From IMG/VR virus record IMGVR_UViG_3300036794_000124, positions 1 through 54,276 of that record: 54,276 nucleotides of DNA, one strand, 5' to 3'. Within the stretch, counting starts at the first letter, position 1; each line of letters opens with the position of its first letter. Shown here piece by piece: positions 7,807-51,933 of the stretch. The DNA is from a virus. Lineage: Duplodnaviria; Caudoviricetes. Below the pieces are notes generated by a model that saw only the letters and a program-made list of their open reading frames with translations, was not told the DNA's origin and did not search any database. The translations under genes and the position numbers were made by a program.

Positions 7807-8054
7807 GGGTTGATCGCCCGGCGGATGTTGCCGCTGATGGCGCGAACCGCCATCCAGTAGGCGGCCATCGGCCCCTTGTTCTTGATCCAGCACGCATGGG
7901 CGCGCTTGTTCGCGTCGACCGAGATGTCGTGACAGAGCGCCCTGATCGCCGAGCGCGATTCCGGGGACAAGGTGTTGACCCGTTTCATCGCCTCCAGCGC
8001 CAGGATCGGGTTCTTCACCTCGCGCCGATTGTTGCGAACGCCGTTCGCGGTCAT
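7803..8054 (-). CDS. Hypothetical protein
   Basis: ATGA-coupled ORF, basic and helical-looking. Confidence 0.55.
   Translation of the reverse strand: MTANGVRNNRREVKNPILALEAMKRVNTLSPESRSAIRALCHDISVDANKRAHACWIKNKGPMAAYWMAVRAISGNIRRAINP
8034..8048. repeat. Dispersed palindrome GCGAACG-C-CGTTCGC
   Basis: Perfect copy, just inside the start of 7803-8054. Confidence 0.9.
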
Positions 8055-8671: not shown

Positions 8672-8994
8672 GCGGCGTCCTCCGCTGGTGCGCCGGCCAT
8701 GGCGTGCCAGGCGCGGAGGAGATCGAGCTTGCGGTGAGCGCGGGCAGCCATCCGGTCGTGGTCGAGGCCGAAGCGCTCATGAACCAGCTGGAGGTTCGCC
8801 GCGACGTCGGCGATCTCCTCCTCCAGCCACTCGCGGTTGAGCTTGCCGGTGACCGGCTCGCGCTCGTCGAGGCCCTGGATGATGCAGCGCGCCACGGCCG
8901 CCTGGCACTCACCCAACTCCTCGGCGAGCTTGCCCAGGTGCTTGAGGTCGACGGCGTCCTTGATCGGCCGCCAGGGCCCCGGGCCGGCGGTCAT
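8668..8994 (-). CDS. MazG-like all-alpha NTP pyrophosphohydrolase
   Basis: KLAEELGE...LEEEIADV (EExxE...ExxD). Confidence 0.8.
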   Translation of the reverse strand: MTAGPGPWRPIKDAVDLKHLGKLAEELGECQAAVARCIIQGLDEREPVTGKLNREWLEEEIADVAANLQLVHERFGLDHDRMAARAHRKLDLLRAWHAMAGAPAEDAA

Positions 8995-11800: not shown

Positions 11801-12156
11801 TGCTTCTTGGCCGTCTGGAAGGAGAAGGCGCGGGTCTCCTGGTCGACATGCAGCTCCATCATCCACGCCCCGCAGGCGTCGATCTCGGCGGCCGGGATCT
11901 CCACCGCGCCGCCCAGGCGGTTGACGAGGACGATCAGCACCTGGTTCTTCATCAGCTCGAGCATCTGGGCGATGGCCGGGTCGCCGGCGTACTGGTGGGC
12001 GCGCTGGTCGCGGGCGAACTCGCCGATCTTGGCCTGGGCCACCGCGTCGGCGGTGCACGCCGCGCAGGGGCCGGGCCCCCCGCACGGGTCCTTCGCGCCG
12101 TCGCGGTTGGGCCACACGTGGCCGTGGCCGCTGGGGGTGTGGAGGGCCGGCGTCAC
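11797..12156 (-). CDS. Hypothetical protein with GHGHV...CGGPGPC..C motif
   Basis: Coupled ORF; His/Cys cluster suggests metal binding. Confidence 0.55.
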   Translation of the reverse strand: MTPALHTPSGHGHVWPNRDGAKDPCGGPGPCAACTADAVAQAKIGEFARDQRAHQYAGDPAIAQMLELMKNQVLIVLVNRLGGAVEIPAAEIDACGAWMMELHVDQETRAFSFQTAKKQ

Positions 12157-13265: not shown

Positions 13266-13552
13266 GGGGTCGCCTCGAACGGGACTGACGGCATTCCGCC
13301 GTTGAGGTGCGGCGGGTAGAAGTCGGCGGGGCGGATTTCCCCGTCCGTGAACGTCACGATCCGTTCCAGCAGCTCCGCCGTCGGCACGCGACGGCGACGA
13401 TCAGCGAAGGGCAGGCAGATCAGGCGCACCTGCTCGTGCGAGCAGCCGATCTCGGCGGCCACCGCCTTCAGCTCCAGCGAACGCTCCCACATCCAGCGCG
13501 CGAAGGCCGGCCGGGGGACGGGTCGGGGCGGATGCGAATCGACGCGGCTCAT
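13262..13552 (-). CDS. cro: Cro-like HTH regulator
   Basis: LKAVAAEIGCSHEQVR...RVP......I...TDGEI.PADF; divergent from CI. Confidence 0.75.
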   Translation of the reverse strand: MSRVDSHPPRPVPRPAFARWMWERSLELKAVAAEIGCSHEQVRLICLPFADRRRRVPTAELLERIVTFTDGEIRPADFYPPHLNGGMPSVPFEATP

Positions 13553-13559
13553 GGTGACG

Positions 13560-13660
13560 TTGATTGCGGGGCTGATTTGTGGTTTAGGTCAACGGCCATT
13601 TTGGCGGGGGCCGCAATTTTGCTTCAACTGGCGGCCAACAGCCAAGCGCGGCCATATCGG
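13560..13660. promoter_or_regulatory. cro/cI divergent promoter-operator region
   Basis: TTGACC on minus strand at 13587-13592; TGATTTGTGGTTTAG (13573-13587) matches 14976-14990 at 14/15. Confidence 0.55.
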
Positions 13661-13663
13661 CGC

Positions 13664-14329
13664 ATGGCGTCGACCGTCAGTCCCGAACAGGCCGAGCGCG
13701 AACTCACCGGCCGCGCCCTTCGCCGGATGCGCGAGGACCGCGGCCTCTTTCAGGGCCACGTGGCCAAGAAGATGGGAATGACCAGCCAGGCCTGGCAGAA
13801 ATACGAGGCCGGCGAGCGCCGGTTCGGCGACAAGCTGCCGCGCATCCTGGAAGCCATCGGGGCCACCGAGGAGGACCTGCGCGACATGCGCGCCGCCCTA
13901 TTGGGCGGCGGCGTCAGGCTTCATTCACGTGGCGTTCAGGAAGAGCGGCGACCATTTACGATCGACGTCTACGGCCGCGCCCGCGCCGGCCCCCAGGGCG
14001 TGCAGAGTTACGATGTGGGGGAGCCGTTGCGTACCATCGACATCAGCCAGATCCTCGGCCCCTCGACCAACGCCCTGGAGATCGCCGGCGACAGCATGGT
14101 GCCGTGGGGCGATCCAGGCGAGATCGTGCTCTTCGACCGCGACCGCTATCCCAAGCGGGGGACCGGCTGCGTCATCGAGACCCTGGCCGGCGAGTATTAC
14201 GTCAAGCTCTACGAGCGCTCGGACGGCTCGACCCTCTTCGCCCGCGAGCTATCTCCGGAGGACCGGATCGTCACCTTCGCCTTGAAGGACCTGCGCGGCG
14301 TCTACGCCATCCGCCTGCGCGGCGATTAG
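13664..14329 (+). CDS. cI: CI-like repressor (XRE HTH plus S24 peptidase)
   Basis: LRRMREDRGLFQGHVAKKMGMTSQAWQKYEAGER; AG cleavage site; GDSM.P catalytic Ser; YVK catalytic Lys. Confidence 0.9.
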   Translation: MASTVSPEQAERELTGRALRRMREDRGLFQGHVAKKMGMTSQAWQKYEAGERRFGDKLPRILEAIGATEEDLRDMRAALLGGGVRLHSRGVQEERRPFTIDVYGRARAGPQGVQSYDVGEPLRTIDISQILGPSTNALEIAGDSMVPWGDPGEIVLFDRDRYPKRGTGCVIETLAGEYYVKLYERSDGSTLFARELSPEDRIVTFALKDLRGVYAIRLRGD

Positions 14330-20315: not shown

Positions 20316-20617
20316 GCGACACGACGGCAGACAAGGACACCGAACTGGCGCTCGCTACGGCCGATCTCGACATTCTCGGCATCGGGTTCCTAATCGACGG
20401 CCGTCGCATCGATCCCACCCGCGTCTCGGTCCTTACAGCCGGGCGCATGGTCCGACTTTCCAAGCCAGAGGCGGAGGTGATCATGGACGCCTTTACGACC
20501 GCCGAAAGCGAAGGCTGGCACATGCACGGCCGATTTGAGAAGGCCGTCATTCTCTCGGCAATTAAGAAGATCAGCGTCGCGGCTGAAGAAGACTTCGACC
20601 CCGCCCTCTGGCTCTAA
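20312..20617 (+). CDS. Hypothetical protein
   Basis: ATGA-coupled ORF. Confidence 0.55.
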   Translation: MSDTTADKDTELALATADLDILGIGFLIDGRRIDPTRVSVLTAGRMVRLSKPEAEVIMDAFTTAESEGWHMHGRFEKAVILSAIKKISVAAEEDFDPALWL

Positions 20618-20627
20618 GGAACCGCCG

Positions 20628-22280
20628 ATGATGCGCGCCGCGCTCTACGGGCGGTTCAGTTCCGACCTGCAGAATCCGGGCTCGATCGCCGACCAGGCGC
20701 GGGTGTGCCGGGCTCACGCGGCCAGGATCGGGGCGAGCGTGGTGGCCGAATACTCCGACGCGGCGATCAGCGGGGCGGCGGCGGTCAATCGGCCCGGGCT
20801 CCAGCAGCTCCTGGCCGACGCGGCGGCGGGGGGCTTCGACGTGGTGATCGCCGAGGCGCTCGATCGCCTGTCGCGATCGCTGGCGGACATGGCGGCGATC
20901 CATGACGACCTGGTCGCCGCCGGCGTGGCCATCTCCACCGTCGCCGAGGCCGACGTCGGCCTCCTCCACATCGGCCTGAAGGGAACGATGAACGCCCTCT
21001 TCCTCGAGGAGCTCGGGCGCAAGACGCGGCGGGGCATCGAGGGGGCGCTGATGGCCGGCCGCCTTCCCGGGCAGCCGCCCTACGGCTATGCCGCCGATCC
21101 TGGCGTCGTCGACGGGGCGGTGGTCAAGGGCCGCTGGCGGACCGTCCCGGCCGAGGCCGCGATCGTGCGGCGCATCTTCGCCGACTACCTCGCCGGCGCG
21201 AGCCCCGGCCAGATCGCCGCCGCCCTCAACGCGCAGGGCGTCCCCTCGCCGCGCGGCACCCTTTGGGCCGCCCAGACCATCCGCGGCTGCCCCGCGCGGG
21301 CCACCGGAATCCTCAACACCGCCGCCTATAACGGCGAGATCGTCTGGGGGCGGACCGTCGGCGCGAAGGATCGGCGCTCAGGGACCGTCCGTAGCCGGAT
21401 CGCCGATCCGGCCAGGATGCGCCGTGTGCCGCGCGAAGACCTGCGGCTCGTCGACGCCGCGACCTGGGCCGCCGTCAAGGCCCGCCAGGACGTCCTCGCC
21501 CACGGCCGGCCCGAGGCGGCGCGGACGCCCCGCCATCTCCTGCAAGGCCTCCTCCGCTGCGCCGGCTGCGGCCGGCCGATGCGGGCCACGGGCCTTCGCC
21601 AGGATCACGGCAAGCGCGCCCGGCGCTTCGTCTGCGCCACCAAGTGGAGCCGGGGCGAGGCGGCCTGCCCCAACCGGCGCACCGCGCTGGCCATCGGCGT
21701 CGAGACCCGGGTCCTCGCCGCCGTCGCCGGCGAGCTGACGCACCCGGCCGCCGTCGAGGCCTTCGTGCGCGAGTTTCACGCCGCCGCCGCCGAGCGGGCC
21801 CGCGGCGGCGGCCGCGAGCGGGCCGAGGCGGCGAAGGAACTGGCCGAGGTCGAACGCCGCGCCGGCCGCCTCGTCGACCAGGTCGCCGAGGGCGCGATCG
21901 CCGGCCGGGCCGTCGCCGAGCGCCTGGCGGGCCTGGAGGCGCGACGCGCGGCCCTGGAGGCGCGCCTGGACGCCCTCGCCGCCCCCGCGCCCATCACCCT
22001 GCACCCGGACGCCCCGCGCCGCTTCGCGCAGGCCGTGGCCGCCCTCCAGACGACCCTGGCGCGCGGCGACACCCGCGAGGACATCGCCGCGCGAGCCCTG
22101 CTGCGCGAGGTCGTCCGCACCGTCTGGTTTCACCCCGGCGAGGCGAAGGGCGAATATCACCTCGTCGTCGAAAGCGACCTCGCCCCCCTGCTCGACGAGC
22201 GACCCACGCCGACGGCAAAGGCCAGTTCAGGCCTCATCCGTTCGCATAGGCCCGAAATCCTGGTGAGGCTGGCCGGATGA
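20628..22280 (+). CDS. Large serine recombinase (integrase)
   Basis: MRAALYGRFSSDLQ (catalytic Ser), DAAISG, RPGL, DRLSR, PYGY, zinc ribbon LLQGLLRCAGCG...C...C, coiled coil; AAGGA RBS. Confidence 0.93.
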   Translation: MMRAALYGRFSSDLQNPGSIADQARVCRAHAARIGASVVAEYSDAAISGAAAVNRPGLQQLLADAAAGGFDVVIAEALDRLSRSLADMAAIHDDLVAAGVAISTVAEADVGLLHIGLKGTMNALFLEELGRKTRRGIEGALMAGRLPGQPPYGYAADPGVVDGAVVKGRWRTVPAEAAIVRRIFADYLAGASPGQIAAALNAQGVPSPRGTLWAAQTIRGCPARATGILNTAAYNGEIVWGRTVGAKDRRSGTVRSRIADPARMRRVPREDLRLVDAATWAAVKARQDVLAHGRPEAARTPRHLLQGLLRCAGCGRPMRATGLRQDHGKRARRFVCATKWSRGEAACPNRRTALAIGVETRVLAAVAGELTHPAAVEAFVREFHAAAAERARGGGRERAEAAKELAEVERRAGRLVDQVAEGAIAGRAVAERLAGLEARRAALEARLDALAAPAPITLHPDAPRRFAQAVAALQTTLARGDTREDIAARALLREVVRTVWFHPGEAKGEYHLVVESDLAPLLDERPTPTAKASSGLIRSHRPEILVRLAG

Positions 22281-26078: not shown

Positions 26079-26828
26079 TTATTGGAAGAACAGGCGCCGC
26101 CAGAGCCGGGGGGTGTTGGAAATTCGCCTGAAGGGATTCACCAGCTCGTTGAGCAGCGCCGTCCGGGTTTCCCGAGAGGACAGCAGGTCGCTTCGAACCC
26201 AGACGTCGTTAGGCACTAACACCTTCCATAAGCGGTATCCACGCTCGCGCATGAACACGTGATAGACGCTCTCGAAGAGCAGATTTTCTATGATCAGCAC
26301 TTTGGGGCGGTATTTGCCGAACGATAGACCGGTGAGAACCTCGAGTTCCCATCCCTCCACGTCGACACACACGAGGTCTATTTCGTTCACTTCCGGGAAA
26401 TGCTCAGCAAGGATGGTGTCCAGCCGCCGCTGGTTCACGCGGATGATCTTTTTGTCCAGGTTACGCTTCAGCTTTGCGTAGCCCGGTTTGATGGCCAGCG
26501 ACGAAAAGCTCTCGAAGGTGACATTGCCGCCGCCGTATGGAGCCCCGTGGGAATCGACGACGGTGAACCCAACGTCATCCTTGTCCCGGTCGGAGCACGC
26601 ATATGGAAGTACCGAGATGCCCCGCGCCTCGTATTCCGCCGCGTAGGCCGGGTTGGGCTCGGTGGCGATGACGTGCCATCCCCGGGATCGAAAGAGCGCG
26701 CTGATCGACAGGAATTCCGGGTGCGCGGTCCCCACCTCGACCATCACGCCCGGCCGGTCGCCGGGAAAGAACCGGTCCATCACTAGGTGGTCGACGTTGC
26801 CCTCGGCGCTGCCGGTCCTCTCTGCCAT
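26079..26828 (-). CDS. FkbM-family SAM-dependent methyltransferase
   Basis: MVEVG...GWHVIATEPNP...IDLVCVDVEGWELEVL.G...RPKVLIIE; visibly lower GC than flanks. Confidence 0.85.
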   Translation of the reverse strand: MAERTGSAEGNVDHLVMDRFFPGDRPGVMVEVGTAHPEFLSISALFRSRGWHVIATEPNPAYAAEYEARGISVLPYACSDRDKDDVGFTVVDSHGAPYGGGNVTFESFSSLAIKPGYAKLKRNLDKKIIRVNQRRLDTILAEHFPEVNEIDLVCVDVEGWELEVLTGLSFGKYRPKVLIIENLLFESVYHVFMRERGYRLWKVLVPNDVWVRSDLLSSRETRTALLNELVNPFRRISNTPRLWRRLFFQ

Positions 26829-26870
26829 GCTGCCCTGTATCACATATGCTGGAGAAGCGGCATCGCCGGT

Positions 26871-41891: not shown

Positions 41892-42391
41892 GCGCCGGCC
41901 TTGGCGGCGGCCTTGTCGACCACGGCCCCGAGCCGGGTGAAGATTTCGCCCTGCATCGCCGCGAGCGGCCCGCGCTCGAAAGCGTGCTCGGCGATGTCCG
42001 GCGTGCGGGTGTAGGCGTCGACCAGCACGGTCATCGGGGCGTTGAGCGCCGCGCCCCAGGCGTGGTCGAGGCGCATCTTGTGGGCCTTGACCTTGGTCGG
42101 GCGATGGGCGCCGTATTCCAGGGCCGAGGCCTTGCCGAAATCCCGCGAGCCCTTCTCGCCGGCGATGTCGACGACGCCGGCTATCCGGTTCTTGTCGTCG
42201 AACATGCGAGCGCGCTCCTGCGACCGCAGCCGGCCGGTCCGGCTCGGCGTCGCGGCTTCGACGCGGGCCAGCAATTCCTCGGCGAGGGCGTGGATTTCCG
42301 AGTAGAGCGCGCCATGGAGGTCGTCCGGGAACCGCTCGAACAGGATCTCGACGTTGCGGGCGCCGGTGATCTCGGCGTGGATATGATCCAT
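41888..42391 (-). CDS. HK97 gp10-like neck protein
   Basis: TPSRTGRLRS, ALEYG, VDAYTR; position. Confidence 0.7.
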   Translation of the reverse strand: MDHIHAEITGARNVEILFERFPDDLHGALYSEIHALAEELLARVEAATPSRTGRLRSQERARMFDDKNRIAGVVDIAGEKGSRDFGKASALEYGAHRPTKVKAHKMRLDHAWGAALNAPMTVLVDAYTRTPDIAEHAFERGPLAAMQGEIFTRLGAVVDKAAAKAGA

Positions 42392-43305
42392 CAGGTGGCC
42401 GCCACGGGGACGCGGTAGGTGTCGAGGACGGCCTGGATGTCGGGCGTGAACGCCCCCTTCTGGCCTGGCGCGCCGCCGAACCAGAAGCGCTCGGTGCCGA
42501 CGGAGGGCGTGTCGCGCTGGATGAGGGCCGGATCGCGGCCGCGGGCGCGGAACCGGCCGGCGACCAGGCGCAGGGCGACGTCGACCAGGTCGAGCGGGAT
42601 GGCGGCCGTGGCGTAGGCGAAGGTCAGATCCTGGCCGACGTCGGCGAGGCTGAAGGTGTAGACGCCGGCCGCGACGCTGTATTGGCCGGCTCCGGGCGTC
42701 CCGGTGACGCGGGCCAGGGCCACGCCGGTGTTGTAGCTCACCGACTGGTCGCAGGAGAACGTCGAGGCCTGGGAGACCGTCACCTGGAACGGCGTGGCCG
42801 GGACGACGTGGGTTTCGGTGACGGCCGCGCCGTAACCGGCGACGTAGGCGACGGTGAGCGGCAGAGGCTCCCAAGGCGTCGGGATGTCGGTGGTGGCATC
42901 GAGGCGCAGCAGTTGGCCGACAGCATAATCGACCCGGAAATCGGTTCCCTCGACGAGGGTCGACGTCACGCCCTCGGCCGAGGTCTGGACGACGCTGGCG
43001 ACCACGATGATCGGCCAGCGGGCGAGCTGGAGGCGCTGGGAGTTGCTGGGAACCTGGTAGCGGCCGCGCGGCAGGTCGAAGAGGTCCTGGACCAGCTCGG
43101 GAGCGAAGACGCGGTTGGTGGCGCTCATCACCAGGCGCGAGACCTGGCCGATCGCCCTGCCGAGCCATGTGTCGTCGGAGGTCTTCGACGCCGGGATCGA
43201 CAGCTCGTCGTGGACGGTGGCGAGGTCGGTGAGGTCGTAGGTCTTGGCCGCCGCCAGGACGGTCGTGACGACCTCGATCCCGTCATTGAGGAGCCCGGTG
43301 GTCAT
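42391..43305 (-). CDS. Head-tail adaptor/connector with inserted beta domain
   Basis: YDLTDLATV..EL...DD..L...I...S......R.F, L.L.RWP, Y.AGY, IP.DL, LD.YR. Confidence 0.75.
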   Translation of the reverse strand: MTTGLLNDGIEVVTTVLAAAKTYDLTDLATVHDELSIPASKTSDDTWLGRAIGQVSRLVMSATNRVFAPELVQDLFDLPRGRYQVPSNSQRLQLARWPIIVVASVVQTSAEGVTSTLVEGTDFRVDYAVGQLLRLDATTDIPTPWEPLPLTVAYVAGYGAAVTETHVVPATPFQVTVSQASTFSCDQSVSYNTGVALARVTGTPGAGQYSVAAGVYTFSLADVGQDLTFAYATAAIPLDLVDVALRLVAGRFRARGRDPALIQRDTPSVGTERFWFGGAPGQKGAFTPDIQAVLDTYRVPVAAT

Positions 43306-44483
43306 CGCCAGATCCCCTCGGGCTTGCCGCGCGAACGCCATTCGCCGATCGGCTGCATGACCGGCGTCGTCTCCGGGCCGCGCTCGGCGGGCCAGAGCAC
43401 GGTCAGCTCCATGTGGCCGATGGGGACGCGGTTGGCGAGGTAGAGGCTTGCGTCCGCCTGCGCCCACTTCTTCCAGAAGGCGATGTCGGCGTCGGAGCGG
43501 CCCTCGTTCCACGAACCGTCCGGGGCCGGAACATCGGCGAACCACGGCTTGGGCAGGCCCCTAAGTTTGTCGGCCCGCAGCAGGGTGAGGCCGAAATGGG
43601 CGGTGGCCACCTCGGTCAGGTCGGCGTCGAAAACCTCGGCCGGGACGCCGGACGCATTGCGCCCGTCCGGGCCCAGGATTGTGAAGAGCCGACCGATGGC
43701 GGCGCCGCGGCCGGCCTGGACGGCGGCGATCGCGTCGGCCTCCGGATGGCAGCACATCAGCTGCAGCAGCATGGCCGCGTCACCTCGGTTGAAGACCGAG
43801 TCGTAGTCGAGGCAGAGGATGGCGTCGGGCTCGTCTTCCCTCAGTGCCTCCTCGATCACCCGCTCCAAGCACTGGTGCCAGTAGGCCCCGGTGTAGCGGC
43901 GCAGTTTGACGTTGAGCGAGGGCAGCGCCTCGATCGCCGCGAACATGTTGTCCATGAACGCCAGGCGCGGGGTCGACATCACCGCCGAGACCGAGATCTC
44001 CGCCAGGTGCGGCTTCACGCCCTCGAGGTTGAGGGAGATCGGCAGGGACGCGCAGTCGGCCAGTTCGCTCTCCCACGGCCGGATGAGCATCAGCCCGGCC
44101 TGGGCCATGAGGGTCTGGAGATGGGCCCTGTCGAAGAGGGCCCTGTGGAAATCATCGGCCGCCGTCTGGCCGCCCATCAGGAAAGCCTCGGTCGGCTGGC
44201 GAGCGCCGGCCATGTAGCGCTCGGCGATGCGCGCGAAGTCCGGCACCGCGATCTTCAGCTTGCCGCCAGGCCGCAGCGCCCGGGACCAATCGGCGAGGAC
44301 GGCGGAGACCTGGCCCGACGGGAAGTGCTCGAGCACGTGGCTGGCGCGGATGATGTCGGCGCTGGCGTCAGCGACCGGCAGGGGGAAGATGGCGCTCCCG
44401 TGGGCGTTGCCCATCGGGATGTAGCCGGGGGGCGAGGTTTCGGCCGCGCCGAGGTCGAGGCAGACGAGCGGACGCATGTCCAT
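43302..44483 (-). CDS. Class I SAM-methyltransferase fused to GT-A (GT2-like) glycosyltransferase
   Basis: LDLGA...LP..DASADII.ASHVLEHF....W.RAL.PGG.L.I.VPD; C-half LCLDYDSVF (DxD), FGLTLLR...KPWF...DIAF...IGH. Confidence 0.8.
   Translation of the reverse strand: MDMRPLVCLDLGAAETSPPGYIPMGNAHGSAIFPLPVADASADIIRASHVLEHFPSGQVSAVLADWSRALRPGGKLKIAVPDFARIAERYMAGARQPTEAFLMGGQTAADDFHRALFDRAHLQTLMAQAGLMLIRPWESELADCASLPISLNLEGVKPHLAEISVSAVMSTPRLAFMDNMFAAIEALPSLNVKLRRYTGAYWHQCLERVIEEALREDEPDAILCLDYDSVFNRGDAAMLLQLMCCHPEADAIAAVQAGRGAAIGRLFTILGPDGRNASGVPAEVFDADLTEVATAHFGLTLLRADKLRGLPKPWFADVPAPDGSWNEGRSDADIAFWKKWAQADASLYLANRVPIGHMELTVLWPAERGPETTPVMQPIGEWRSRGKPEGIWR
43331..43345. repeat. Dispersed palindrome, one mismatch (GCGAACGCCATTCGC)
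   Basis: 25 bp upstream of the adaptor start. Confidence 0.75.
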
Positions 44484-45766
44484 CAGGCGGCCGCCGCGTG
44501 GGCCAGGGCCGGGTGATCGTCGGCCGGATCGTAGGCGCGAGTGTTGAGGCCGACGAGGATGCTTCCGGCCTTGAGGAGGAACCAGTGCGGGGTGCCGGCG
44601 CGGACGCGGTAGATGCGGCCGATCACCATAGGCGCGCCGACGCTGTCGGCGGCGAAGGCGATACGGCCCTCGCCCTCGCTGAGGATGAATATTTCGTCCT
44701 TGCGCGTGTGAAAGTGGCCACCGATCTCGCAGTCTTCCTTGACCGTGATCAGTTTGGCGTCGGGGAAGCTCTCCAGAACTCGGCGGGCGTCGCTGTGGAC
44801 CGCGCGCGGCGGGGCGAGCTTGGCCATCTCGGCGTCGACCATGATCGCCACCAGCTCGGCGAACTTGACCCTCGGCTCGAAGCCGAGGACGCGCCGGCTC
44901 TTGGCCGCGTCGCCGCACAGGAGGTCGACCTCGGCCGGGCGGGTGAGGTCCTCGTCATAGTCGACGTGAGCGCGCCAGTCGGCGATCCCGACATGGGCGA
45001 AGGCGGCGGCGACGAATTCCTCCACCGAGTGGGTCTCGCCGGTGGCGATGACGAAGTCGTCGGCCGTCTCGTGCTGGAGGATGCGCCAGATCCACTCGAC
45101 GTATTCCGGGGCGTAGCCCCAGTCGCGCTTGGCGGCGAGGTTGCCGAGGATGAGCTTGTCGCGCCGGCCGGCGGCGATCTCGGCTACCGCCTGGCAGACC
45201 TTGCGGGAAAGGAACGCCGGGCCCCGGCGGGGGCTCTCGTGGTTGAAGAGGATGCCGCAGGAGACGCGGGCCCCGTAGGCCTCGCGCCACACCCGGGCCA
45301 GCTCGAACGCCGCGACCTTCGAGGCCCCGTAGGGGCTGCGGGGATAGAAGGCCGTGGTCTCCGTCTGCGGCGTCTCGCGCACGCGGCCGAACATCTCGGA
45401 CGAACAGGCCTGGTAGACGCGCGGCTCCAGCCGCAGCGTCCGGCAGGTCTCCAGGATGCGCAGCAGGCCGCCGGCGTTGACGTCGAGGGTGACCTCGGGA
45501 TGGTCGTAGCTGTCGCGCACCTGGCTCATGCCGGCGAGGTTGTAGATCTCGTCCGGCCGCACCTTGTCGAGGATGCGCGCCAGGCTGAGACCGTCGGTCA
45601 TGTCGCCGGTGTGCAGGGTGATCTGGCCCAGCACGGCGGCGAGGTTGGAGGTGTTCGGCTGGGAGACGCGGCGGATGAGGCCGTGCACCTCGTAGCCCTT
45701 GGCGATCAGCAGCTCGGCCAGGTAGGACCCGTCCTGGCCGGTGATGCCGGTGATGAAAGCGCGCAT
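44483..45766 (-). CDS. gmd: GDP-mannose 4,6-dehydratase with C-terminal cupin domain
   Basis: FITGITGQDGSYLAELL, YQACSSEMFG, FYPRSPYGASK, GILFNHESPRRG, LGNL.AKRDWG; cupin GGHFHTRKDE...AGTPH. Confidence 0.93.
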   Translation of the reverse strand: MRAFITGITGQDGSYLAELLIAKGYEVHGLIRRVSQPNTSNLAAVLGQITLHTGDMTDGLSLARILDKVRPDEIYNLAGMSQVRDSYDHPEVTLDVNAGGLLRILETCRTLRLEPRVYQACSSEMFGRVRETPQTETTAFYPRSPYGASKVAAFELARVWREAYGARVSCGILFNHESPRRGPAFLSRKVCQAVAEIAAGRRDKLILGNLAAKRDWGYAPEYVEWIWRILQHETADDFVIATGETHSVEEFVAAAFAHVGIADWRAHVDYDEDLTRPAEVDLLCGDAAKSRRVLGFEPRVKFAELVAIMVDAEMAKLAPPRAVHSDARRVLESFPDAKLITVKEDCEIGGHFHTRKDEIFILSEGEGRIAFAADSVGAPMVIGRIYRVRAGTPHWFLLKAGSILVGLNTRAYDPADDHPALAHAAAA

Positions 45767-45822
45767 GGCGGTGTCCTCTGTCGGGAGGGATCGGCCCGGG
45801 TGTCGGCCCGGAGCGGAGTGGC

Positions 45823-46020
45823 TCAGGCCTTGGTTTCGGCCTCGGCCGCCGGTTCTTCGGCGGCGGCTTCCTCGCGGGGCGCGGCGGCCTCGTCGAGGAT
45901 GTTGTGCGCGGCGGCGACGGCGCCTTTGATGTGGTGCGGTTCGGCGTCGTGACGCCCGGCGAGCAGGGTCGCGGCGATCACGGCGACGGCGGCGGGGTCG
46001 TGGTCGGCTTTCTTGGCCAT
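45823..46020 (-). CDS. Small acidic hypothetical protein
   Basis: AAGGA RBS, 65 aa. Confidence 0.6.
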   Translation of the reverse strand: MAKKADHDPAAVAVIAATLLAGRHDAEPHHIKGAVAAAHNILDEAAAPREEAAAEEPAAEAETKA

Positions 46021-46138
46021 GGCGGGGTTTCCTTGAGGCGAGAGGGCGATGGGACCGGACCGACATCCGGCCCCATCTGATCAGCGCTGACTGGCAGTCC
46101 GGGTGCCGGCCCGGATGGGGAGGCCTGGCGGGAGGGCG

Positions 46139-46576
46139 TCAGCCCTCGGTCAGGACCATGGCGTTGGCCTTGGCCGCCGTGTAGGGGGCCTGCTCGCCGC
46201 GACCCAGGTTCGCCAGGATGGTGACGGTCTGGGTCGTCGCCGGGCTGTAGACTGGCTGGAGGTAGCGCTTGCGGCCGCGGCAATCGACGTTGAACTTGAA
46301 GTTGTTCTGGAGGACCGCGGTGGCCGCCGTGTTGGCGGCCGGGACGCTCGCCGGGGTGGCGAAAGCGGTGATGTCGGCGAAGGAGGACGAGTTGGTGACG
46401 TCGGCCTCCTGGAGCTTCACGACGGTGGGGGAGTTGGACACGACGTCCGCCGTGGTGGCGATGATGTCGATGGTCGCCCAGTCGTAGCCGAGGGTGTCGA
46501 TGATGCCCGAGGCCGTGGCCCCGTTGGTCTTGGAGACGCCGTTCACGGCGACGATGGTCTTGAGCTGCGGGGTCAT
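46139..46576 (-). CDS. Probable capsid decoration/cement protein
   Basis: Follows MCP, AAGGAG RBS, IIDTLGYD...KLQEAD...RKRYL. Confidence 0.65.
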   Translation of the reverse strand: MTPQLKTIVAVNGVSKTNGATASGIIDTLGYDWATIDIIATTADVVSNSPTVVKLQEADVTNSSSFADITAFATPASVPAANTAATAVLQNNFKFNVDCRGRKRYLQPVYSPATTQTVTILANLGRGEQAPYTAAKANAMVLTEG

Positions 46577-46634
46577 AAGAAGCTTCTCCTTTCAGAGAAT
46601 GGGATGGCGGAAGGGATGGCTCAGCCGGCGAGGG

Positions 46635-46663
46635 AGCGGGGGCGAACGGCGTTCGCCCCCGCT
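46635..46663. repeat. Dispersed palindrome extended to a 14-1-14 inverted repeat
   Basis: AGCGGGGGCGAACG-G-CGTTCGCCCCCGCT, 4 bp downstream of the MCP stop. Confidence 0.9.
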
Positions 46664-46667
46664 ACGA

Positions 46668-47984
46668 TCACGGGGACTTGGCGGCGACGAGCGGCCCGGC
46701 GGTGACGGTGTCGCCGAGGTCGTGGCAGTTGATGTCGAACCGCTCGGTGCCCAGCAGGCCGATCTGGTCGTTCTCGAAGTAGCGGTGATCGGACCGGCGG
46801 ATGGTGACCCCGCGGCGTTCGCCCAGGGCGGCGGCCTTGGAGAGGTCGCCGAACAGGAACTGCACCTTGCCGGAGCCGGGGGCGGCGATCGGCAGCTTCT
46901 GGGCGATGACCACCGGGAAGCCCAGCAGGCGAGGCTGCAAGGGATCGGTGGCCAGGGTGGCGATGGTGTTGCCGCCCGCCTTGGCCAGGACGGTGCCGGC
47001 CGCCGAGTAGAACATCTGCTGGCTCATGTACCACTTGGCGCGCTGGAGCGCGTATTGCGGCAGGACGCCCATGACGCCGGTGAAGTCGGCCGCGACGAGC
47101 GCGGTCAGGGTCGCCGAGGAGGTCGTGTATTGGCCGGCGGTGTGGCTGCCGTCGGCGAAGATCTGGGTGATCCCGCGCATGCCGCCGTAGGTCGAGGTGC
47201 CATCGCCGTTGAAGCCGCAGTCGTCTTCCTTGGCCGCGAAGGCGTAGGCGATTTCACCGACCAGCCAGTCGGCGACGGAGACCACGGCGTCCTCGGCTAT
47301 CTCGTTGGACATCCGGGTGAGGGCGCCCAGTTTCTTGGCCGTGAGGTTGATGTTGTCCCACTGGGCCTGGCTCTCGGTGATCGCCGTGTTCTCGCCGGTG
47401 AAGTAGGCGGTGAGGCCCCCCACGCGGCGCGGCCAGTTGAGGGTGTCGGAGCCCATCGGGACGACCTGGCATTCCTTGCGGAAGACGCCGAACTCTTCGC
47501 GAAGGACGATGATGTTGGCGAGCAGTTCCTCCGGCACCAGGAAGCCGCCGGCGGAATCGACGCCTTCGCCCTGGGCCTTGGTCACCGCCATGCCGTGCGA
47601 CTTGCACCAGTCGACGGCGGCGTCGTCGCCGAAGATGGTGGCCTTGAACCACATGCCGGCGGCGTAGGCCTGGTCGACGGCGCGCACCGTCCGGCCGTCG
47701 ATCTCACGGTCCTGGAAGTGCTTGAGCTTGCCGTAGAGCTTGTGGGCGCTGGGCGGCGCCGTCGGGGTCGTGCGGTCCTGGCCGGCGACGGGCGTCGCCA
47801 GGGCGGCGGCGATCTTCTCGGCTTCCTCGACGCGGGCCAGTTGGTCCTTGAGGTCGATGATCGTCTGCTTGAGGGCGTCGTAGACCTCCTGCTTGAAGCC
47901 TTCGGCTTCGGACTTTGCGCCCAGCGCCGAGAGTTCGTCGGCGGCCTTGGCCAGCTGCTGGCGCAGCTCGTGCTTCTTCGCCAT
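46668..47984 (-). CDS. Major capsid protein, HK97 fold, with N-terminal coiled-coil delta domain
   Basis: AGGFLVPEE, LTAKKLGAL...S.E..ED, F.GDG, FGDL, F..DQ.....TERFD; AGGAG RBS. Confidence 0.93.
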   Translation of the reverse strand: MAKKHELRQQLAKAADELSALGAKSEAEGFKQEVYDALKQTIIDLKDQLARVEEAEKIAAALATPVAGQDRTTPTAPPSAHKLYGKLKHFQDREIDGRTVRAVDQAYAAGMWFKATIFGDDAAVDWCKSHGMAVTKAQGEGVDSAGGFLVPEELLANIIVLREEFGVFRKECQVVPMGSDTLNWPRRVGGLTAYFTGENTAITESQAQWDNINLTAKKLGALTRMSNEIAEDAVVSVADWLVGEIAYAFAAKEDDCGFNGDGTSTYGGMRGITQIFADGSHTAGQYTTSSATLTALVAADFTGVMGVLPQYALQRAKWYMSQQMFYSAAGTVLAKAGGNTIATLATDPLQPRLLGFPVVIAQKLPIAAPGSGKVQFLFGDLSKAAALGERRGVTIRRSDHRYFENDQIGLLGTERFDINCHDLGDTVTAGPLVAAKSP

Positions 47985-48083
47985 GTCATGGCTCCTGTTT
48001 CAAAAGGGTTGGGTGGGTGTCGGTAAGGCGGCGCCTATCGCCGCCCGCCGCGGGGCGCTCTTCAGGTGTCGGCTCGGAGCGCC

Positions 48084-49493
48084 CTAGTCGATTGCGGGAA
48101 GATCGGCCCGGATCGCCGCGACCTCTTCGAGGCGGCGTTCTTCGGGCGAGAGGGCGGCGAGGCGCCTTTCCTCGTCGTCGTTCGGCTCTTCGACGGGCTC
48201 TTCTTCGGGCTCGCCATCCGGCTCCTCGTCACCGTCCATCAGGGCCTTGATGCACTTGGCCGTCTCGGCGTGGTGGCCCATCGCCTCCTCGAGCGTGGCG
48301 CGGGTGGCGGCGGAGATACGGCGTCCGGACTTGGCCGCGACGATGAGGATCGGCGCCGTCTTGGCGTCGGCGATGGCCGCCTCGTAGTGGTCGAGGACGG
48401 CCTTGGCGCTCTCCTTGACAGCGTCGGGGATGTCGGTCTGGGGCAGGCGCGCGGCGGCGGCGTGGATCCCGGAGGCGGCGGCCTTTAGTTCCCCGCCGAC
48501 GACGCGGGCGAAGGGCAGCTTGTAGGAACCGCGCAGCTTGGGCGCGCCGGCGTCGTAGGCGAGGAAGCCCTTGCGGGCGATGGCCGGGTCGAATTCGTCG
48601 CCGCCGGCGTGATCGAAGATCGAGGCCTCGGCGGCGGGGCCGTCCCAGTCGCCTTCCTCGTCGATCGGAAGGTCGCGGGCCGCGCCGCAGGTCCATTCCT
48701 CGGCGGCGCGAAGGGTCAGGCCCTTGGGGAGCACCAGGGTCGCCGAGGGATCGGCCTCCCAGCGGCGCATGGCGTCACGGGCCGTCTTGGCCAGGTCGGG
48801 GCTTACCGCCCGGTCGGCCTGGAGGTAGTAGCGGCGCGGACCGGCCTCCTTGGACTGGGCGCGCAGCCCCTCCAGCTCGTGGCGCGGCAGGAAGACGGTG
48901 TCGCCGCTGTCGAGCACCTTCTCGGCCCATTCGGCGAGGGGCCGGATGTCGACGCCGAGGCTGCGGGCCTCGCCCAGGGCGTTGGGGTTGCACGGCACCG
49001 GGCAGACGCTGATCTCGAGGAGCGTCTGCTTGGTGAAATCGATGCCGTACGGCCGATCCTTGTCGGAACTCCACGACCACTCCTTGGGCATGAAGCCGAC
49101 GGAGACGGCCTTGAGGTAGCCGCCGTCGACCAGGCGGAAGATGGTGTCGGCGAAATCGTAGGTCTCGGGCGGGGCGAACTCGATCTCGCCGACCAGCTCG
49201 GCCCCGACGACCTTGACGTTGGAGGCGCGGCCGATCGGCGGGTCCCAGCTCATGTGGCTGAAGAGGGCGACCGGGTTGCGGTTGAAGACCGCGAGGTCCC
49301 AGCCCTTGGGATCGATGGTGTCGCCGCTGTGGTCGACGGTGGCGTCGGAGAAGACGAAGCGCTTGGTGCGCTGGGCGCCCTCGACGGTCACCGGGTCGCC
49401 GGCGGCGTAGCGGAAGACGGTCCCTTCCGGGTGCGCGTCGCCGCCCTTGGCGGCGGCGCGGAAGGCGTCGGCCGACAGAAGCTTCATGGGCAT
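48084..49493 (-). CDS. HK97-family prohead protease with extra C-terminal domain
   Basis: DHSGD.I...GW....F.RNPV.LF.H...PIG...GYLKAVSVGF...LLEISVC.VPCNPNAL. Confidence 0.9.
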   Translation of the reverse strand: MPMKLLSADAFRAAAKGGDAHPEGTVFRYAAGDPVTVEGAQRTKRFVFSDATVDHSGDTIDPKGWDLAVFNRNPVALFSHMSWDPPIGRASNVKVVGAELVGEIEFAPPETYDFADTIFRLVDGGYLKAVSVGFMPKEWSWSSDKDRPYGIDFTKQTLLEISVCPVPCNPNALGEARSLGVDIRPLAEWAEKVLDSGDTVFLPRHELEGLRAQSKEAGPRRYYLQADRAVSPDLAKTARDAMRRWEADPSATLVLPKGLTLRAAEEWTCGAARDLPIDEEGDWDGPAAEASIFDHAGGDEFDPAIARKGFLAYDAGAPKLRGSYKLPFARVVGGELKAAASGIHAAAARLPQTDIPDAVKESAKAVLDHYEAAIADAKTAPILIVAAKSGRRISAATRATLEEAMGHHAETAKCIKALMDGDEEPDGEPEEEPVEEPNDDEERRLAALSPEERRLEEVAAIRADLPAID

Positions 49494-49507: not shown

Positions 49508-50551
49508 TTATGGCGCGACGAGGACGGCGATGCTGCCGGCCACGTTGTTGTCGCCCATGTCGTGGACCACGGCGGCGAAGCGCTCGGTGGCGAGGATGGC
49601 GATCTGGTCGGTGTCCAGGTAGCGATGGTCGGATCGCGCGATCGTCAGGCCGCGGCGCTGGCCGAGCACGGCGCCGGCGTAGAGATCGCCGAAGGCCATC
49701 ATCGCCTTGCCGGTGACCGAGGTGTTCACCAGCGGGAACTTCTGGCTGAAGACGACCGGGAAGCCGTTGTAGAACGGCGTCGAGATGCCATCCTCGAGGC
49801 GCGTCTCGAGGTAGCCGCCGGTCTCGGCCCGGGCCAGGGTCAGGGCGAAGCCCGAGACGCTGACGAACCATGCGGCCCGCTCCAGCGCCGAGGCGCGGAC
49901 GCCGGCGACGAGGTTGCCGAGGTCGGTGCTGTCCAGCAGCCCGTAGGTGTTGTGACCGGTGGCGGCGACGACCTTGGCCAAGCCGTGGACGCCATCGAGG
50001 GCGATCGTGGTGATCCCGCGCATGCCGCCGTAGGTCGCCGTGCCGTCGCCGTAGAAGCCGCAGTCGTCCTCCTTGGACGCCAGGGCCCAGGCCATCTCGT
50101 TGGCGACGTAGTCGACCATGTCGACGATGGCGTCTTCGGCCAGTTCGCTGGAGAGGGTGACGAGGGCGCCCAGCTTCTTGGCCGTTAGCTGCACGCCGTC
50201 CAGGTTGGTCGTGGACGCCCCGGCCGCCGCGCCCTCGCCGATGAAGGCGGCGGTGGACGAGCCGGTGCGGCGCGGGAAGAGCGAGGTGTCCGAGCCCATC
50301 GGCCAGACGCAGGCGCGGCGGCGGAAGGCCCCGAAGCTGTCGCGCAGATCGAGGATGGCGTTTTCCAGCTCGGTGGGGACGAGGAAGCCGCCGGCCGAGC
50401 CGATGCCCTCGCCGGTCGCCTTGCGGATTTGAACGCCCTTGCGGTCGCACCAGTCGCGCGAGACGGAGCGGCCATAGACCGTGGCCAGCAGCCAGTGGCC
50501 GGCGCGCTCATAGCGGTCGGCCTTGTCGGGGCCGGTAAAAGCTCGCTTCAT
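49508..50551 (-). CDS. Second major-capsid-protein paralogue lacking the N-terminal coiled coil
   Basis: SAGGFLVP, PMGSDT, LTAKKLGAL, KEDDCGF.GDGT.TYGGMRGIT, RSDHRY, TERF shared with 46668-47984; AAGGAG RBS. Confidence 0.9.
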   Translation of the reverse strand: MKRAFTGPDKADRYERAGHWLLATVYGRSVSRDWCDRKGVQIRKATGEGIGSAGGFLVPTELENAILDLRDSFGAFRRRACVWPMGSDTSLFPRRTGSSTAAFIGEGAAAGASTTNLDGVQLTAKKLGALVTLSSELAEDAIVDMVDYVANEMAWALASKEDDCGFYGDGTATYGGMRGITTIALDGVHGLAKVVAATGHNTYGLLDSTDLGNLVAGVRASALERAAWFVSVSGFALTLARAETGGYLETRLEDGISTPFYNGFPVVFSQKFPLVNTSVTGKAMMAFGDLYAGAVLGQRRGLTIARSDHRYLDTDQIAILATERFAAVVHDMGDNNVAGSIAVLVAP

Positions 50552-50578
50552 CGGCGCTCCTTCATGGGGCTGGCGACC

Positions 50579-50593
50579 GCGAACGCCGTTCGC
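50579..50593. repeat. Dispersed palindrome GCGAACG-C-CGTTCGC
   Basis: Perfect copy, intergenic between portal and second capsid gene. Confidence 0.9.
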
Positions 50594-50604
50594 GGAGCGG
50601 GTCT

Positions 50605-51933
50605 TCAGTCTTCGGCCGACTGGTCGTCGGCGGGGGCGGCCGGCGCGGCGGGATCGCCCGAGCCGCCGGGCGCCGGGGCGCCGGTGATGTCGCTGCCGGG
50701 GCCGGTTTCCTTGCCGGTCGGCTCGAAGCCGATCGGGGCGACGTTGGTCGGCTGGTAGAGGGTGTCGCCCTCGGGATGGTCGGGGAGGCCCTCGGCGCGG
50801 CGCGCCTCGTTGGGGGTGAGGAACATGCCGACGATGCCGGTGCGGTAGGCGGTGTAGCGCGTCTGCAGGGAGGCGCGGAGGATCCCCGAGACGTCGAACT
50901 CGACGAAGACGCCATCGGCGGCCAGGCCGAAGGTGACGGCGAGCTTGTCTTCCCAGCGGCCGAGGTCGGAGGAGACGACGCTGTTCATGTAGTCCTGGTC
51001 GAGCTGCTCCAGGCTCGCGCCCATGCCGCGCTCGACGATGCCGAGCTTGTGCGGCGGCAGGCGCCACAGCCGGGCGATCTCTTCGACCTGCATGCGGCGG
51101 CCGGCGATGAGCTCGGCGTCCTTGGCGGTCATGCCGAGCGCCTGCCACTTCACCCCCTGCTCGAGGACGGCGGTGGCCCCGGCGTTCTTCAGACCTTGCT
51201 TGCTCTCCTTCCAGGACTTTGCCAGGCGCTGGGAGGCCGGCTCGGAGAGCTTCTGGTCGGTCGTCAGCACCCCGCCGAGGTTGGTGGAGTTGGCCGACAG
51301 GCGTCCGGCCAGTTCCTGCTGCGAAAGCGCCAGGCCGATCACCTCTCGGGAAAGGCCGATGCGCGAGGCGCCGTAGAGGACGTTGTCGAACCCGATCCAG
51401 CGGACATGGAGAATGTCTTCCGCCGGGATCATCAAGGGGAAGGCGGCGAGGACCGCCGTCTCGTGCAGGCCGCGGCGGGCGACCTGGTAGAAGACCGCGC
51501 CGCCGGGGGCCTCGAATATCCACACCCGATCGGGGTTGACGGGCCACAGGCCGGTGATTCGGCCCCGGCCGTCGCGCAGGATGACGGCGTAGGCGTTGCC
51601 GCGCAGGAGGAGCGCGACCATCATCATCTCGACGAACTCGAAGCGGCCCTGGTCGCCGTTCGGCTGCTGGAGCACGCGCTCCAGGGGGTGATCGGCAGCG
51701 ATCGCCTTGCCGCCGCCGGGCAGCGGGCGATAGACGTGGACCGGCAGCTTGGCGACATCCTCGGCGCGGATGGAGACGCAGGCCTGGACGGTGGAGACCT
51801 GCATCGCCGAGAGCTGGGTCACGGCCATGCCGCCGGCGCTGACCGAGGTGGGCCCGAACTCGGCCCACCAGTCGTCGATCGACATCGCCGACTTGTTCGT
51901 AACCGCGTCCCAGACGCGCGACCAGATGCTCAT
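50605..51933 (-). CDS. Portal protein, HK97 family
   Basis: V.ACV....EDVAKLP, HPL..VL..PN, LLLRGNAY, EDILH.R, NAG..VLEQG, EIAR.WR.PPH, LTPNEAR..EGLP. Confidence 0.95.
   Translation of the reverse strand: MSIWSRVWDAVTNKSAMSIDDWWAEFGPTSVSAGGMAVTQLSAMQVSTVQACVSIRAEDVAKLPVHVYRPLPGGGKAIAADHPLERVLQQPNGDQGRFEFVEMMMVALLLRGNAYAVILRDGRGRITGLWPVNPDRVWIFEAPGGAVFYQVARRGLHETAVLAAFPLMIPAEDILHVRWIGFDNVLYGASRIGLSREVIGLALSQQELAGRLSANSTNLGGVLTTDQKLSEPASQRLAKSWKESKQGLKNAGATAVLEQGVKWQALGMTAKDAELIAGRRMQVEEIARLWRLPPHKLGIVERGMGASLEQLDQDYMNSVVSSDLGRWEDKLAVTFGLAADGVFVEFDVSGILRASLQTRYTAYRTGIVGMFLTPNEARRAEGLPDHPEGDTLYQPTNVAPIGFEPTGKETGPGSDITGAPAPGGSGDPAAPAAPADDQSAED

Follow-up and report, generated by a model that had tools for sequence, protein, structure and literature searches.

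A candidate head-glycosylation cassette between the capsid and adaptor genes of a tailed phage

What would the products of sugar-nucleotide and transferase genes modify when a tailed phage carries them in the middle of its head genes? The question is raised by IMG/VR record IMGVR_UViG_3300036794_000124 (Duplodnaviria; Caudoviricetes), which we analysed over its whole length of 54,276 bp (hereafter the window). The window, with a GC content of ~70%, is an entire contig of a genome bin of 3.07 Mb in 315 contigs, and terminal overlap was absent from the contig ends in a circularity check. It carries genes for a large terminase, a portal, a prohead protease and HK97-type capsid proteins, together with gene transfer agent (GTA)-like tail genes, a serine recombinase, a CI-like helix-turn-helix (HTH) plus S24 repressor, ParB and DNA-modification genes, and by gene content the phage reads as a temperate siphophage. 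Two adjacent genes, one encoding a GDP-mannose dehydratase (Gmd) fused to a cupin (P0001, 427 aa) and the other a methyltransferase-fold (MT-fold) domain followed by a GT-A glycosyltransferase domain (P0002, 393 aa; hereafter the transferase), lie between the capsid genes and the head-tail adaptor gene, the location given in a preliminary description made from the DNA letters alone. At a probability of about 0.55, we read the pair as a late-operon cassette that would glycosylate a head protein with a GDP-6-deoxyhexose made from host GDP-mannose. The genes and domains concerned are as follows, in the order of transcription; GC3 is the GC content at third codon positions.

46668..47984, minus strand: major capsid protein (HK97 type), first gene of a conserved triad (PF05065, E 5.6e-49)
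46139..46576, minus strand: p145, a small Ser/Thr-rich protein of 145 aa, candidate decoration protein and candidate glycan acceptor (phrog_5707, function unknown, E 2e-9)
45823..46020, minus strand: p65, an open reading frame (ORF) of 65 aa within the 372-nt gap upstream of Gmd (GC3 0.86; tblastn matches in relatives L007 and L039 only)
44483-45766, minus strand: gene 1, encoding P0001, 427 aa (Gmd plus cupin)
44807..45766, minus strand: Gmd domain of P0001, residues 1 to ~320 (PF16363, E 1.8e-116)
44483..44806, minus strand: cupin domain of P0001, residues ~321-427 and stop codon (metal-type cupin; modelled)
43302-44483, minus strand: gene 2, encoding P0002, 393 aa (MT-fold plus GT-A)
44004..44483, minus strand: MT-fold domain of P0002, residues 1 to ~160 (Methyltransf_11, 29.2 bits; Z 13.7 to CgnL)
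43302..44003, minus strand: GT-A domain of P0002, residues ~161-393 and stop codon, with DYD at 226-228 (STIV A197, Z 18.7)
42391..43305, minus strand: head-tail adaptor, its start overlapping the P0002 stop (phrog_442, E 2.7e-16)

Do the two genes belong to the head operon? The TGA of gene 1 and the ATG of gene 2 have one base in common (TGATG), gene 2 and the adaptor gene share the four bases ATGA at their stop and start, and the start of P0001 lies 8 nt downstream of a GAGGA motif. The P0001 and P0002 genes have a GC3 of 0.87-0.96, compared with 0.91-0.97 for the structural genes. A scan of 42800-48200 for sigma-70 promoters returned none, with a consensus that may not suit a host of 70% GC, and a terminator scan of the same interval returned four terminator-like sites against 2.8 expected, none of them intergenic on the gene strand. 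The Gmd-cupin and transferase genes are supported as members of the head operon: their shared orientation, the two overlaps already reported in the preliminary description, the matching GC3 and the lack of a promoter or terminator consensus between the genes all agree on this. Late co-expression with the structural genes would be the simplest reading, since GC3 is like that of the structural genes and no such consensus lies between them. When sequencing runs were searched with 43302-46576, one DNA run was found, a soil metagenome from which the window may itself derive, and no RNA run was among those listed. The stretch between p145 and Gmd has features of its own: a palindromic 16-mer, CCGGGCCGRCACCCGG, occurs in exact copies at 45796-45811 and 46099-46114 (minus strand), flanking p65, and a third copy at 46055-46070 has two mismatches (five matches at up to two mismatches, against 1.2 expected). 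The copies may form RNA hairpins that set transcript levels. The p65 protein matched no Pfam or PHROG family.

What, then, do the two proteins look like? Residues 4-309 of P0001 match GDP_Man_Dehyd (PF16363) with 389.7 bits against a cut-off of 27, and solved Gmd structures match P0001 at E 3.5e-95 (1n7g) to 5.9e-86 (1db3), with an identity of ~50%. Short-chain dehydrogenases/reductases (SDRs) are recognised by a cofactor-binding GxxGxxG, a catalytic Ser/Thr-x-Glu and a YxxxK motif. In P0001, G7xxG10xxG13, S122-S123-E124 and Y146xxxK150 have identical counterparts in the alignments with 1n7g and 6gpj, and the Gmd domain is as intact in its NAD-binding, SSE and YxxxK motifs as first described. 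It should make GDP-4-keto-6-deoxymannose. The Gmd encoded elsewhere in the genome bin is 44% identical to that of P0001 and has no cupin. Among GenBank phages, compared by tblastn against 50,697 INPHARED records, 240 records matched P0001, none of them across the cupin.

The C-terminal domain of P0001 was modelled with AlphaFold2 (residues 312-427, from an alignment with 25 full-length relatives), and a cupin barrel was obtained for the last ~105 residues with a mean predicted local distance difference test (pLDDT) score of 89.8. The top Foldseek matches of the model are the C-terminal cupin of Staphylococcus aureus CapF (E 1.8e-7), for which VIA-align gives a Z of 13.5 with a root-mean-square deviation (rmsd) of 3.0 Å over 111 residues; 663 of the 998 chains aligned to the model reach a Z of at least 8, and the top 50 listed are all cupins. 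The canonical metal-cupin motif is HxH(x)4E with a distal His. The corresponding residues in P0001, H351, H353, E358 and H394, are invariant in 26/26 aligned sequences, and the predicted cupin fold and metal site are well supported by the model, the structural matches and this invariance. With the Gmd family match and the modelled barrel in one open reading frame, the fusion of Gmd to a cupin holds as described.

Placing the cupin within its superfamily is harder. A profile of seven cupin sequences matches a quercetinase (5.5e-7), a phosphomannose isomerase (7zvy, 1.3e-6), QdtA (1.5e-4, aligned over 79/115 profile positions) and CapF (0.11). The Pfam family Cupin_2, with a gathering cut-off of 27.2 bits, gives 18.0 for the window domain and is passed by two relatives (L003, 30.2; L039, 28.2); it is matched by 20/26 relatives at E up to 0.05, Lyx_isomer by 14/26, and PF05523 by 4/26, the window protein not being among those four. 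P0001 has 17 NCBIfam matches at E up to 0.01, and NF047837, the CapF/WbjC-type model (cut-off 500), is not one of them; its SDR, moreover, is a dehydratase of Gmd type and not a reductase. P0001 is therefore not a member of the CapF/WbjC family, though it may be CapF-like in its working. A word search found 27 other proteins with this cupin, 27/27 of which also carry Gmd, while an exhaustive profile search recovered 322 representatives at E up to 0.001, for the most part 100-115 aa long and without a fusion partner; weak matches below the cut-off connect some of them with WbuC and, at ~18-24 bits, with the C-terminal part of NF047837. Stand-alone relatives were absent from the 87 phage loci introduced below, in which the cupin occurs only fused (nine loci). 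The preliminary description had named both FdtA/QdtA and CapF as possible cupin types: CapF is the nearest, along with WbuC and small metal cupins that have the metal motif, and FdtA/QdtA is the weaker match.

The second protein was modelled at full length (pLDDT 87.2; predicted template modelling score, pTM, 0.88). Residues 163-385 align with the GT-A protein A197 of Sulfolobus turreted icosahedral virus (STIV; 2c0n) at a Z of 18.7, with an rmsd of 2.6 Å over 178/191 residues and 13% identity, followed by the second glycosyltransferase-like domain of LH3 (Z 15.8), mimivirus R699 (15.4) and COLGALT1 (14.1; Foldseek E 2.9e-9), and lower down by TarP (13.9), RmlT (13.6), SpsA (13.5) and the fucosyltransferase WrtF (12.9). 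Directly after a core strand of the model (221-225) stands D226-Y227-D228, which is invariant in 32/32 sequences, as are some 80 further columns at 55-75% identity. This domain escapes family models: P0002 matched no glycosyltransferase family in Pfam, NCBIfam or PHROG, a PDB sequence search returned nothing for residues 160-393, and PF13632 is a precomputed match on only 3 of 120 listed relatives. Against GenBank phages P0002 had no match at 1e-5, and at E up to 1 only matches to the MT domain together with one at chance level (E 0.8, residues 29-214). The C-terminal domain, on which the proposal of a glycosyltransferase hinged, is modelled as GT-A, and with it all four domain assignments of the cassette hold by family, model and structural match, including the fusion of an MT domain to GT-A.

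The N-terminal domain of P0002 is predicted to have a class-I methyltransferase fold. It scores 29.2 bits against Methyltransf_11 (cut-off 21.2), over profile positions 51-93 of 95 only, and residues 3-161 of the model align at a Z of 13.7 with CgnL and 13.0 with 3dli and Trm9, all class-I methyltransferases; the structure rows of the ESM Atlas are compact viral and bacterial class-I methyltransferases with a TM score of 0.79-0.95 to this domain. Class-I enzymes that use S-adenosylmethionine (SAM) carry a motif I of the form GxGxG and an acidic residue after strand 2. Motif I reads LDLGAA in P0002 and LDLGAG in most relatives, and after strand 2 most of 32 sequences have P-[LM]-G-N/R in place of Asp or Glu. 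The methylated glycan of the preliminary description has become doubtful, given an MT-fold domain that appears to lack the usual acidic SAM-binding residues and separate FkbM methyltransferases in relatives. The same compact MT fold is also fused to a GT41 (O-GlcNAc-transferase-like) domain in cyanobacterial proteins of 978 aa (Methyltransf_11 on 86% of the ESM Atlas cluster), and MT-glycosyltransferase fusions are therefore not limited to phages.

These features of the two proteins also bear on a different account, in which the cupin is of the phosphomannose isomerase type and raises the supply of GDP-mannose, or P0002 is a catalytically dead assembly or decoration factor. The archaeal cupin phosphomannose isomerase is indeed the second-best sequence match, with a Z of 12.0, Lyx_isomer is found on those 14 relatives, and the MT domain covers half of its Pfam profile. 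However, neither a phosphomannomutase nor a guanylyltransferase lies beside the cupin, the fusion to Gmd suggests the Gmd product as its substrate, and the invariance of DYD and the columns that accompany it fits an active enzyme. We regard this account, in either form, as very unlikely.

Is the position of the transferase beside the capsid gene peculiar to this phage? The transferase family is large, with 1405 proteins at E <=0.001 among the 8000 candidates scored; of 120 listed relatives nearly all are full length, with 54-75% identity, and are named 'hypothetical' or 'methyltransferase'. A profile scan of IMG/VR found at least 593 contigs that encode a relative (593/599 pattern matches), and species-representative genomes contributed six loci, in one Bradyrhizobium bin, four Planctomycetota bins and one Chitinophagales bin. 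For comparison we assembled 87 loci, consisting of the best-scoring 80 of the at least 593 IMG/VR contigs, these six and one more, which were searched by tblastn with the window proteins and collapsed at 90% transferase identity into 71 clusters. Genes upstream were counted only in loci with at least 2.5 kb of upstream DNA (66 loci, or 59 clusters). In 66/66 loci (59/59 clusters) the transferase has a capsid homologue upstream of it in the same orientation. The two have a p145 homologue between them in 62/66 loci (56/59 clusters), at a median distance of 150 nt from the transferase. This order holds across locus GC contents of 0.45-0.72 and capsid identities to the window down to 24%. Downstream, a homologue of the window adaptor follows the transferase in 27 of the 71 loci with at least 1.5 kb of downstream DNA, and a gp6-like connector (PF05135) is a recognisable neighbour in 24 further loci. 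One locus (L061) has two transferase copies, and in L010-L013 the GT domain lacks a fused methyltransferase domain.

The same loci speak to the possibility that the sugar is added to the host surface instead of the virion. The soluble GT-A enzyme, supplied by Gmd-cupin, would then decorate a lipid-linked unit of O-antigen, capsule or exopolysaccharide with a deoxysugar. This could take place in lysogens (serotype conversion, superinfection exclusion) or else late in infection, where it would keep progeny from sticking to cell debris. Phage-encoded enzymes that modify O-antigen are well established, the phage appears temperate from the two lifestyle markers below, wall-polymer enzymes are among the GT-A structural matches (TarP, Z 13.9; RmlT, 13.6; WrtF, 12.9), and the 372-nt gap with its hairpins before Gmd could permit separate expression.

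20535-22280: serine recombinase, lifestyle marker
13307-14329: CI-like HTH plus S24 repressor, lifestyle marker

Such a role leaves unexplained the tie to the capsid gene and p145 (59/59 and 56/59 clusters, over the whole GC range of 0.45-0.72). Conversion genes typically sit near the attachment site and integrase, whereas the recombinase here is ~21 kb from the cassette; among the cassette products no flippase, GtrA/GtrB-like protein or membrane protein was recognised, and its GC3 is that of the structural genes, unlike that of a low-GC island elsewhere in the window that carries an FkbM gene. On balance we consider modification of the host surface unlikely.

The tie to the capsid gene likewise bears on a role in DNA glycosylation, in which the GT-A enzyme would add sugar to a hypermodified phage base around the time of packaging. 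Phage enzymes of GT-A fold have been described that glycosylate 5-hydroxymethylcytosine in DNA (bioRxiv 10.1101/2023.12.21.572611), and the window has a homologue of 5-hydroxymethyldeoxyuridine (5-hmdU) DNA kinase (PF18723, 6e-47), a C5 DNA methylase domain and ParB. However, the DNA-modifying transferases described in that preprint are encoded in clusters that contain C5 methyltransferase, 5mYOX, ThyS and replication genes (bioRxiv 10.1101/2023.12.21.572611), while the DNA-modification genes of the window lie at ~5-12 kb, which puts some 31 kb or more between them and the cassette. All loci examined have the transferase tied to the capsid gene, and the structures that it matches best are a viral transferase and enzymes directed at protein or wall glycans; T4 beta-GT and JGT are not among them. 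DNA glycosylation is the least probable of the explanations weighed here. The DNA-modification block itself (2135-12115, minus strand) encodes an SNF2 helicase, a 972-aa protein with an N6/N4 DNA methylase domain, the 5-hmdU DNA kinase homologue and a C5-cytosine methylase domain, and suggests that the phage DNA may contain a hypermodified thymidine.

If head glycosylation is the function, where does the sugar come from in relatives that have the transferase alone? The slot between p145 and the connector was examined through 116 ORFs scanned with Pfam (nine near-duplicate loci skipped) and then with NCBIfam. Gmd-cupin is present in 11/87 loci, or 8/71 clusters, and is missing even from two relatives with 72-73% transferase identity (L007 and L014). 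The gmd-plus-glycosyltransferase neighbourhood expected from the window recurs in part: the transferase is the conserved core and Gmd-cupin an optional add-on. In L023 the slot combines a Gmd (540.8 bits, cut-off 415) with a GDP-L-fucose synthase (496.5 bits, cut-off 500), besides an FkbM methyltransferase, and this complete GDP-fucose pathway is the best pointer to a GDP-6-deoxyhexose donor. Three loci have a sulfotransferase (PF00685) in the slot before the transferase (L043:2962-4010, L076:2474-3609 and L084:6681-7986), preceded by a protein with a dATP/dGTP diphosphohydrolase N-domain in L043 and L076 and followed by a nucleotidyltransferase in L084, which hints at sulfated head glycans in these phages. 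Other slots hold a GT-B transferase (L053), other methyltransferases (L078 and L085), an FkbM methyltransferase (L040) or a GH16 domain (L020), and the proteins P0030 and P0085 carry FkbM as an N-terminal fusion to the transferase. The window has an FkbM gene too, distant from the cassette and beside the tail-fibre region:

26079..26843, minus strand: FkbM-family methyltransferase in a low-GC island, possible (unproven) accessory (PF05050, E 1.7e-18; TIGR01444, 47.5 bits against a cut-off of 37.7)

With a GC of 0.60 and a GC3 of 0.78, compared with ~0.70 and 0.93 elsewhere, this gene looks like a recent import; its product is 35% identical over 71 aa to the FkbM protein of L023, and it is of another lineage than, and only remotely similar to, the FkbM genes beside the transferase in relatives.

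The claim of virion glycosylation in the preliminary description has gained plausibility from the order of capsid gene, p145 and transferase and from the L023 pathway, and its methylated glycan is the part that has weakened. Which head protein might carry the sugar? The p145 protein is a candidate acceptor because it is the most constant neighbour of the transferase and, at 20%, has the highest Ser+Thr content of 17 head and tail proteins (family median 22.4%). Its family, for which 46 sequences were collected, matched no Pfam family, with best matches scattered at chance level; a profile search of the PDB returned antibody Fab chains alone (E 0.17), and p145 had no match at 0.01 among the GenBank phages. 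A lead from the ESM Atlas, where PF21190 covers 15% of one cluster (score 0.92), would have made p145 a Bbp16 protein, and was rejected when Pfam did not confirm it.

Other head genes of the window have unusual features of their own. A second HK97-type capsid paralogue (49508-50620, minus strand; PF05065, 1.9e-33), ~45% identical to the main capsid protein, lies between the portal and protease genes, and recurs at the same place in many relatives (e.g. L002-L007, L014, L019-L020, L028-L035); it could be a vertex or penton protein like T4 gp24. The prohead protease gene (48084-49466, minus strand) encodes 460 aa, of which the S78 domain takes up residues 42-163 only; the remainder towards the C-terminus, long and acidic, may be a scaffold joined to the protease, and in several relatives the tblastn match is split into two pieces. 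In L026 an extra capsid-family gene (6327-7391; PF05065, 1.4e-27) lies between p145 and the transferase.

How might such a cassette work? By homology, the Gmd domain would turn host GDP-mannose into GDP-4-keto-6-deoxy-D-mannose. GDP-mannose is probably available, as the bin encodes a homologue of mannose-1-phosphate guanylyltransferase (294.6 bits, below the cut-off of 372.95, over the guanylyltransferase part of the profile only). The metal cupin may then enolise the keto sugar, leading to C3 epimerisation as in CapF or to a keto shift as in QdtA. Either the Gmd domain itself or a reductase of the host could carry out the reduction. The preliminary description, which saw no reductase in the cassette, had suggested that the host finishes the sugar; the first point stands, and the host may not be needed, since the GMD of the chlorovirus Paramecium bursaria chlorella virus 1 (PBCV-1) is reported also to reduce its own product to GDP-D-rhamnose (PMC5408694). 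In the third step the GT-A domain, a fold assigned by modelling, would use a DYD-bound metal to move the sugar of a GDP-6-deoxyhexose onto a head protein, most likely the Ser/Thr-rich p145 or else the capsid protein itself. The MT-fold domain would either methylate the sugar or act as a docking domain. Capsid gene, p145 and transferase would form the constant core of such a system and the sugar-supply genes its exchangeable part, with different head glycans in different phages as a consequence.

Several observations weigh against this reading. Beyond the domain assignments, everything in it rests on gene position, and the 80 IMG/VR loci are a top-scoring and not a random sample, so that the 87 loci are biased towards relatives of the window phage. 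Four of the 66 loci have no detectable p145, and in one locus (L066) a connector gene stands between the capsid gene and the transferase. Gmd-cupin is missing from 63/71 clusters, in which the donor must therefore come from the host or from other genes, and in L025 and L039 Gmd is located after the transferase. The Gmd of P0001 scores 375.5 bits against the NCBIfam equivalog TIGR01472, below the cut-off of 415, which places it in a divergent lineage, and no reductase accompanies it. For the cupin, the Z scores are nearly tied (CapF 13.5, KdgF 12.3, DddK 12.1, archaeal phosphomannose isomerase 12.0, QdtA 11.0), and the sequence profile puts quercetinase and phosphomannose isomerase above QdtA and CapF. 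The MT domain matches half of its Pfam profile and has GAA where its relatives have GAG. Finally, the 372-nt gap with small hairpins upstream of Gmd leaves room for separate regulation.

Can the reading be extended beyond this phage? A bolder version, to which we would give somewhat less than an even chance, is that the triad of capsid gene, p145 and transferase is a widespread, undescribed head-glycosylation system with a hypervariable glycan island beside it that would diversify the capsid surface, and Gmd-cupin a new bifunctional GDP-6-deoxyhexose enzyme. The phages concerned would be tailed phages of soil and water bacteria (their contigs are binned with Alphaproteobacteria, Planctomycetota and Bacteroidota), and the product of Gmd-cupin, made by one polypeptide, would be a C3-epimer or a 3-keto isomer. 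For the 3-keto isomer we know of no dedicated GDP-sugar isomerase.

If the widespread system is real, glycosylated heads would be a common trait among uncultured phages that infect Gram-negative and other environmental bacteria, and their glycans would be made by an enzyme family without curated annotation and tuned by exchangeable sugar, methyl and sulfate genes. This would bear on the adsorption of phages to mucus, soil matrices and biofilms, on particle stability, and on recognition by grazers or immune systems. It would also affect the annotation of transferase genes now labelled 'methyltransferase' or 'hypothetical'. Gmd-cupin would offer glycobiology a compact route to a modified GDP-deoxysugar, and the constant partner p145 is a concrete candidate for the acceptor.

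How does the cassette compare with systems already known? Its closest single match in structure is STIV A197, like the GT domain of P0002 a minimal viral GT-A, which differs in its archaeal virus, its stand-alone domain and a sequence of 13% identity. STIV A197 has been proposed to glycosylate the STIV capsid protein. Mycobacteriophages, like the window phage, are tailed phages with their own glycosyltransferases; these are reported to glycosylate both capsid and tail tube (PMC12363180; PMC11256854). Documented cases of phage-encoded virion glycosylation have so far been confined to a few mycobacteriophages (Che8, Corndog and Myrna; Freeman et al., 2023, as cited in PMC12363180 and PMC11256854), and there it is described as shielding particles from antibodies (PMC12363180; PMC11256854). 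Their hosts are Actinobacteria, and glycosylation is proven there, while here it is a proposal. In the F1 phages the glycosyltransferase genes are placed towards the genome's 3' end (PMC12363180), whereas in the window they stand between the capsid and connector genes.

PBCV-1, with GMD, GMER and A064R, shares with the window a virus-encoded Gmd and a protein that joins GT-A and methyltransferase domains. A064R is described as a soluble multidomain protein, with a DxD-bearing GT-A domain and a methyltransferase, that acts on the glycans of the major capsid protein (PMC5408694). Its domain order is given as GT, unknown, methyltransferase (PMC5408694), whereas in P0002 the methyltransferase fold precedes the GT domain. 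PBCV-1 is a eukaryotic giant virus with N-linked glycans, has no cupin fusion and has dispersed genes that are expressed early (PMC5408694).

CapF (Cap5F of S. aureus, 3st7) resembles P0001 in fusing an N-terminal SDR to a C-terminal metal cupin. In CapF the zinc cupin is described as epimerising a nucleotide-4-keto-6-deoxy sugar, which the SDR then reduces (PMC5393024). The SDR of P0001 belongs to the Gmd family and is a true 4,6-dehydratase for a GDP sugar, whereas that of CapF is a UDP-sugar reductase, and the sequence-profile match of CapF to the P0001 cupin has an E of 0.11, with other small cupins within ~1.2 Z of it. QdtA and FdtA are small cupins like that of P0001 and act on nucleoside diphosphate (NDP)-4-keto-6-deoxyhexoses. 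These 3,4-ketoisomerases are metal-independent. The P0001 cupin, by contrast, keeps the full HxH..E..H and is ~30 residues shorter.

A literature search of titles and abstract openings returned neither a Gmd-cupin nor this transferase beside a capsid gene. What is new here in relation to known virion glycosylation is an unannotated enzyme family, its fixed place downstream of the capsid and p145 genes, a set of interchangeable tailoring genes around it, and the Gmd-cupin architecture.

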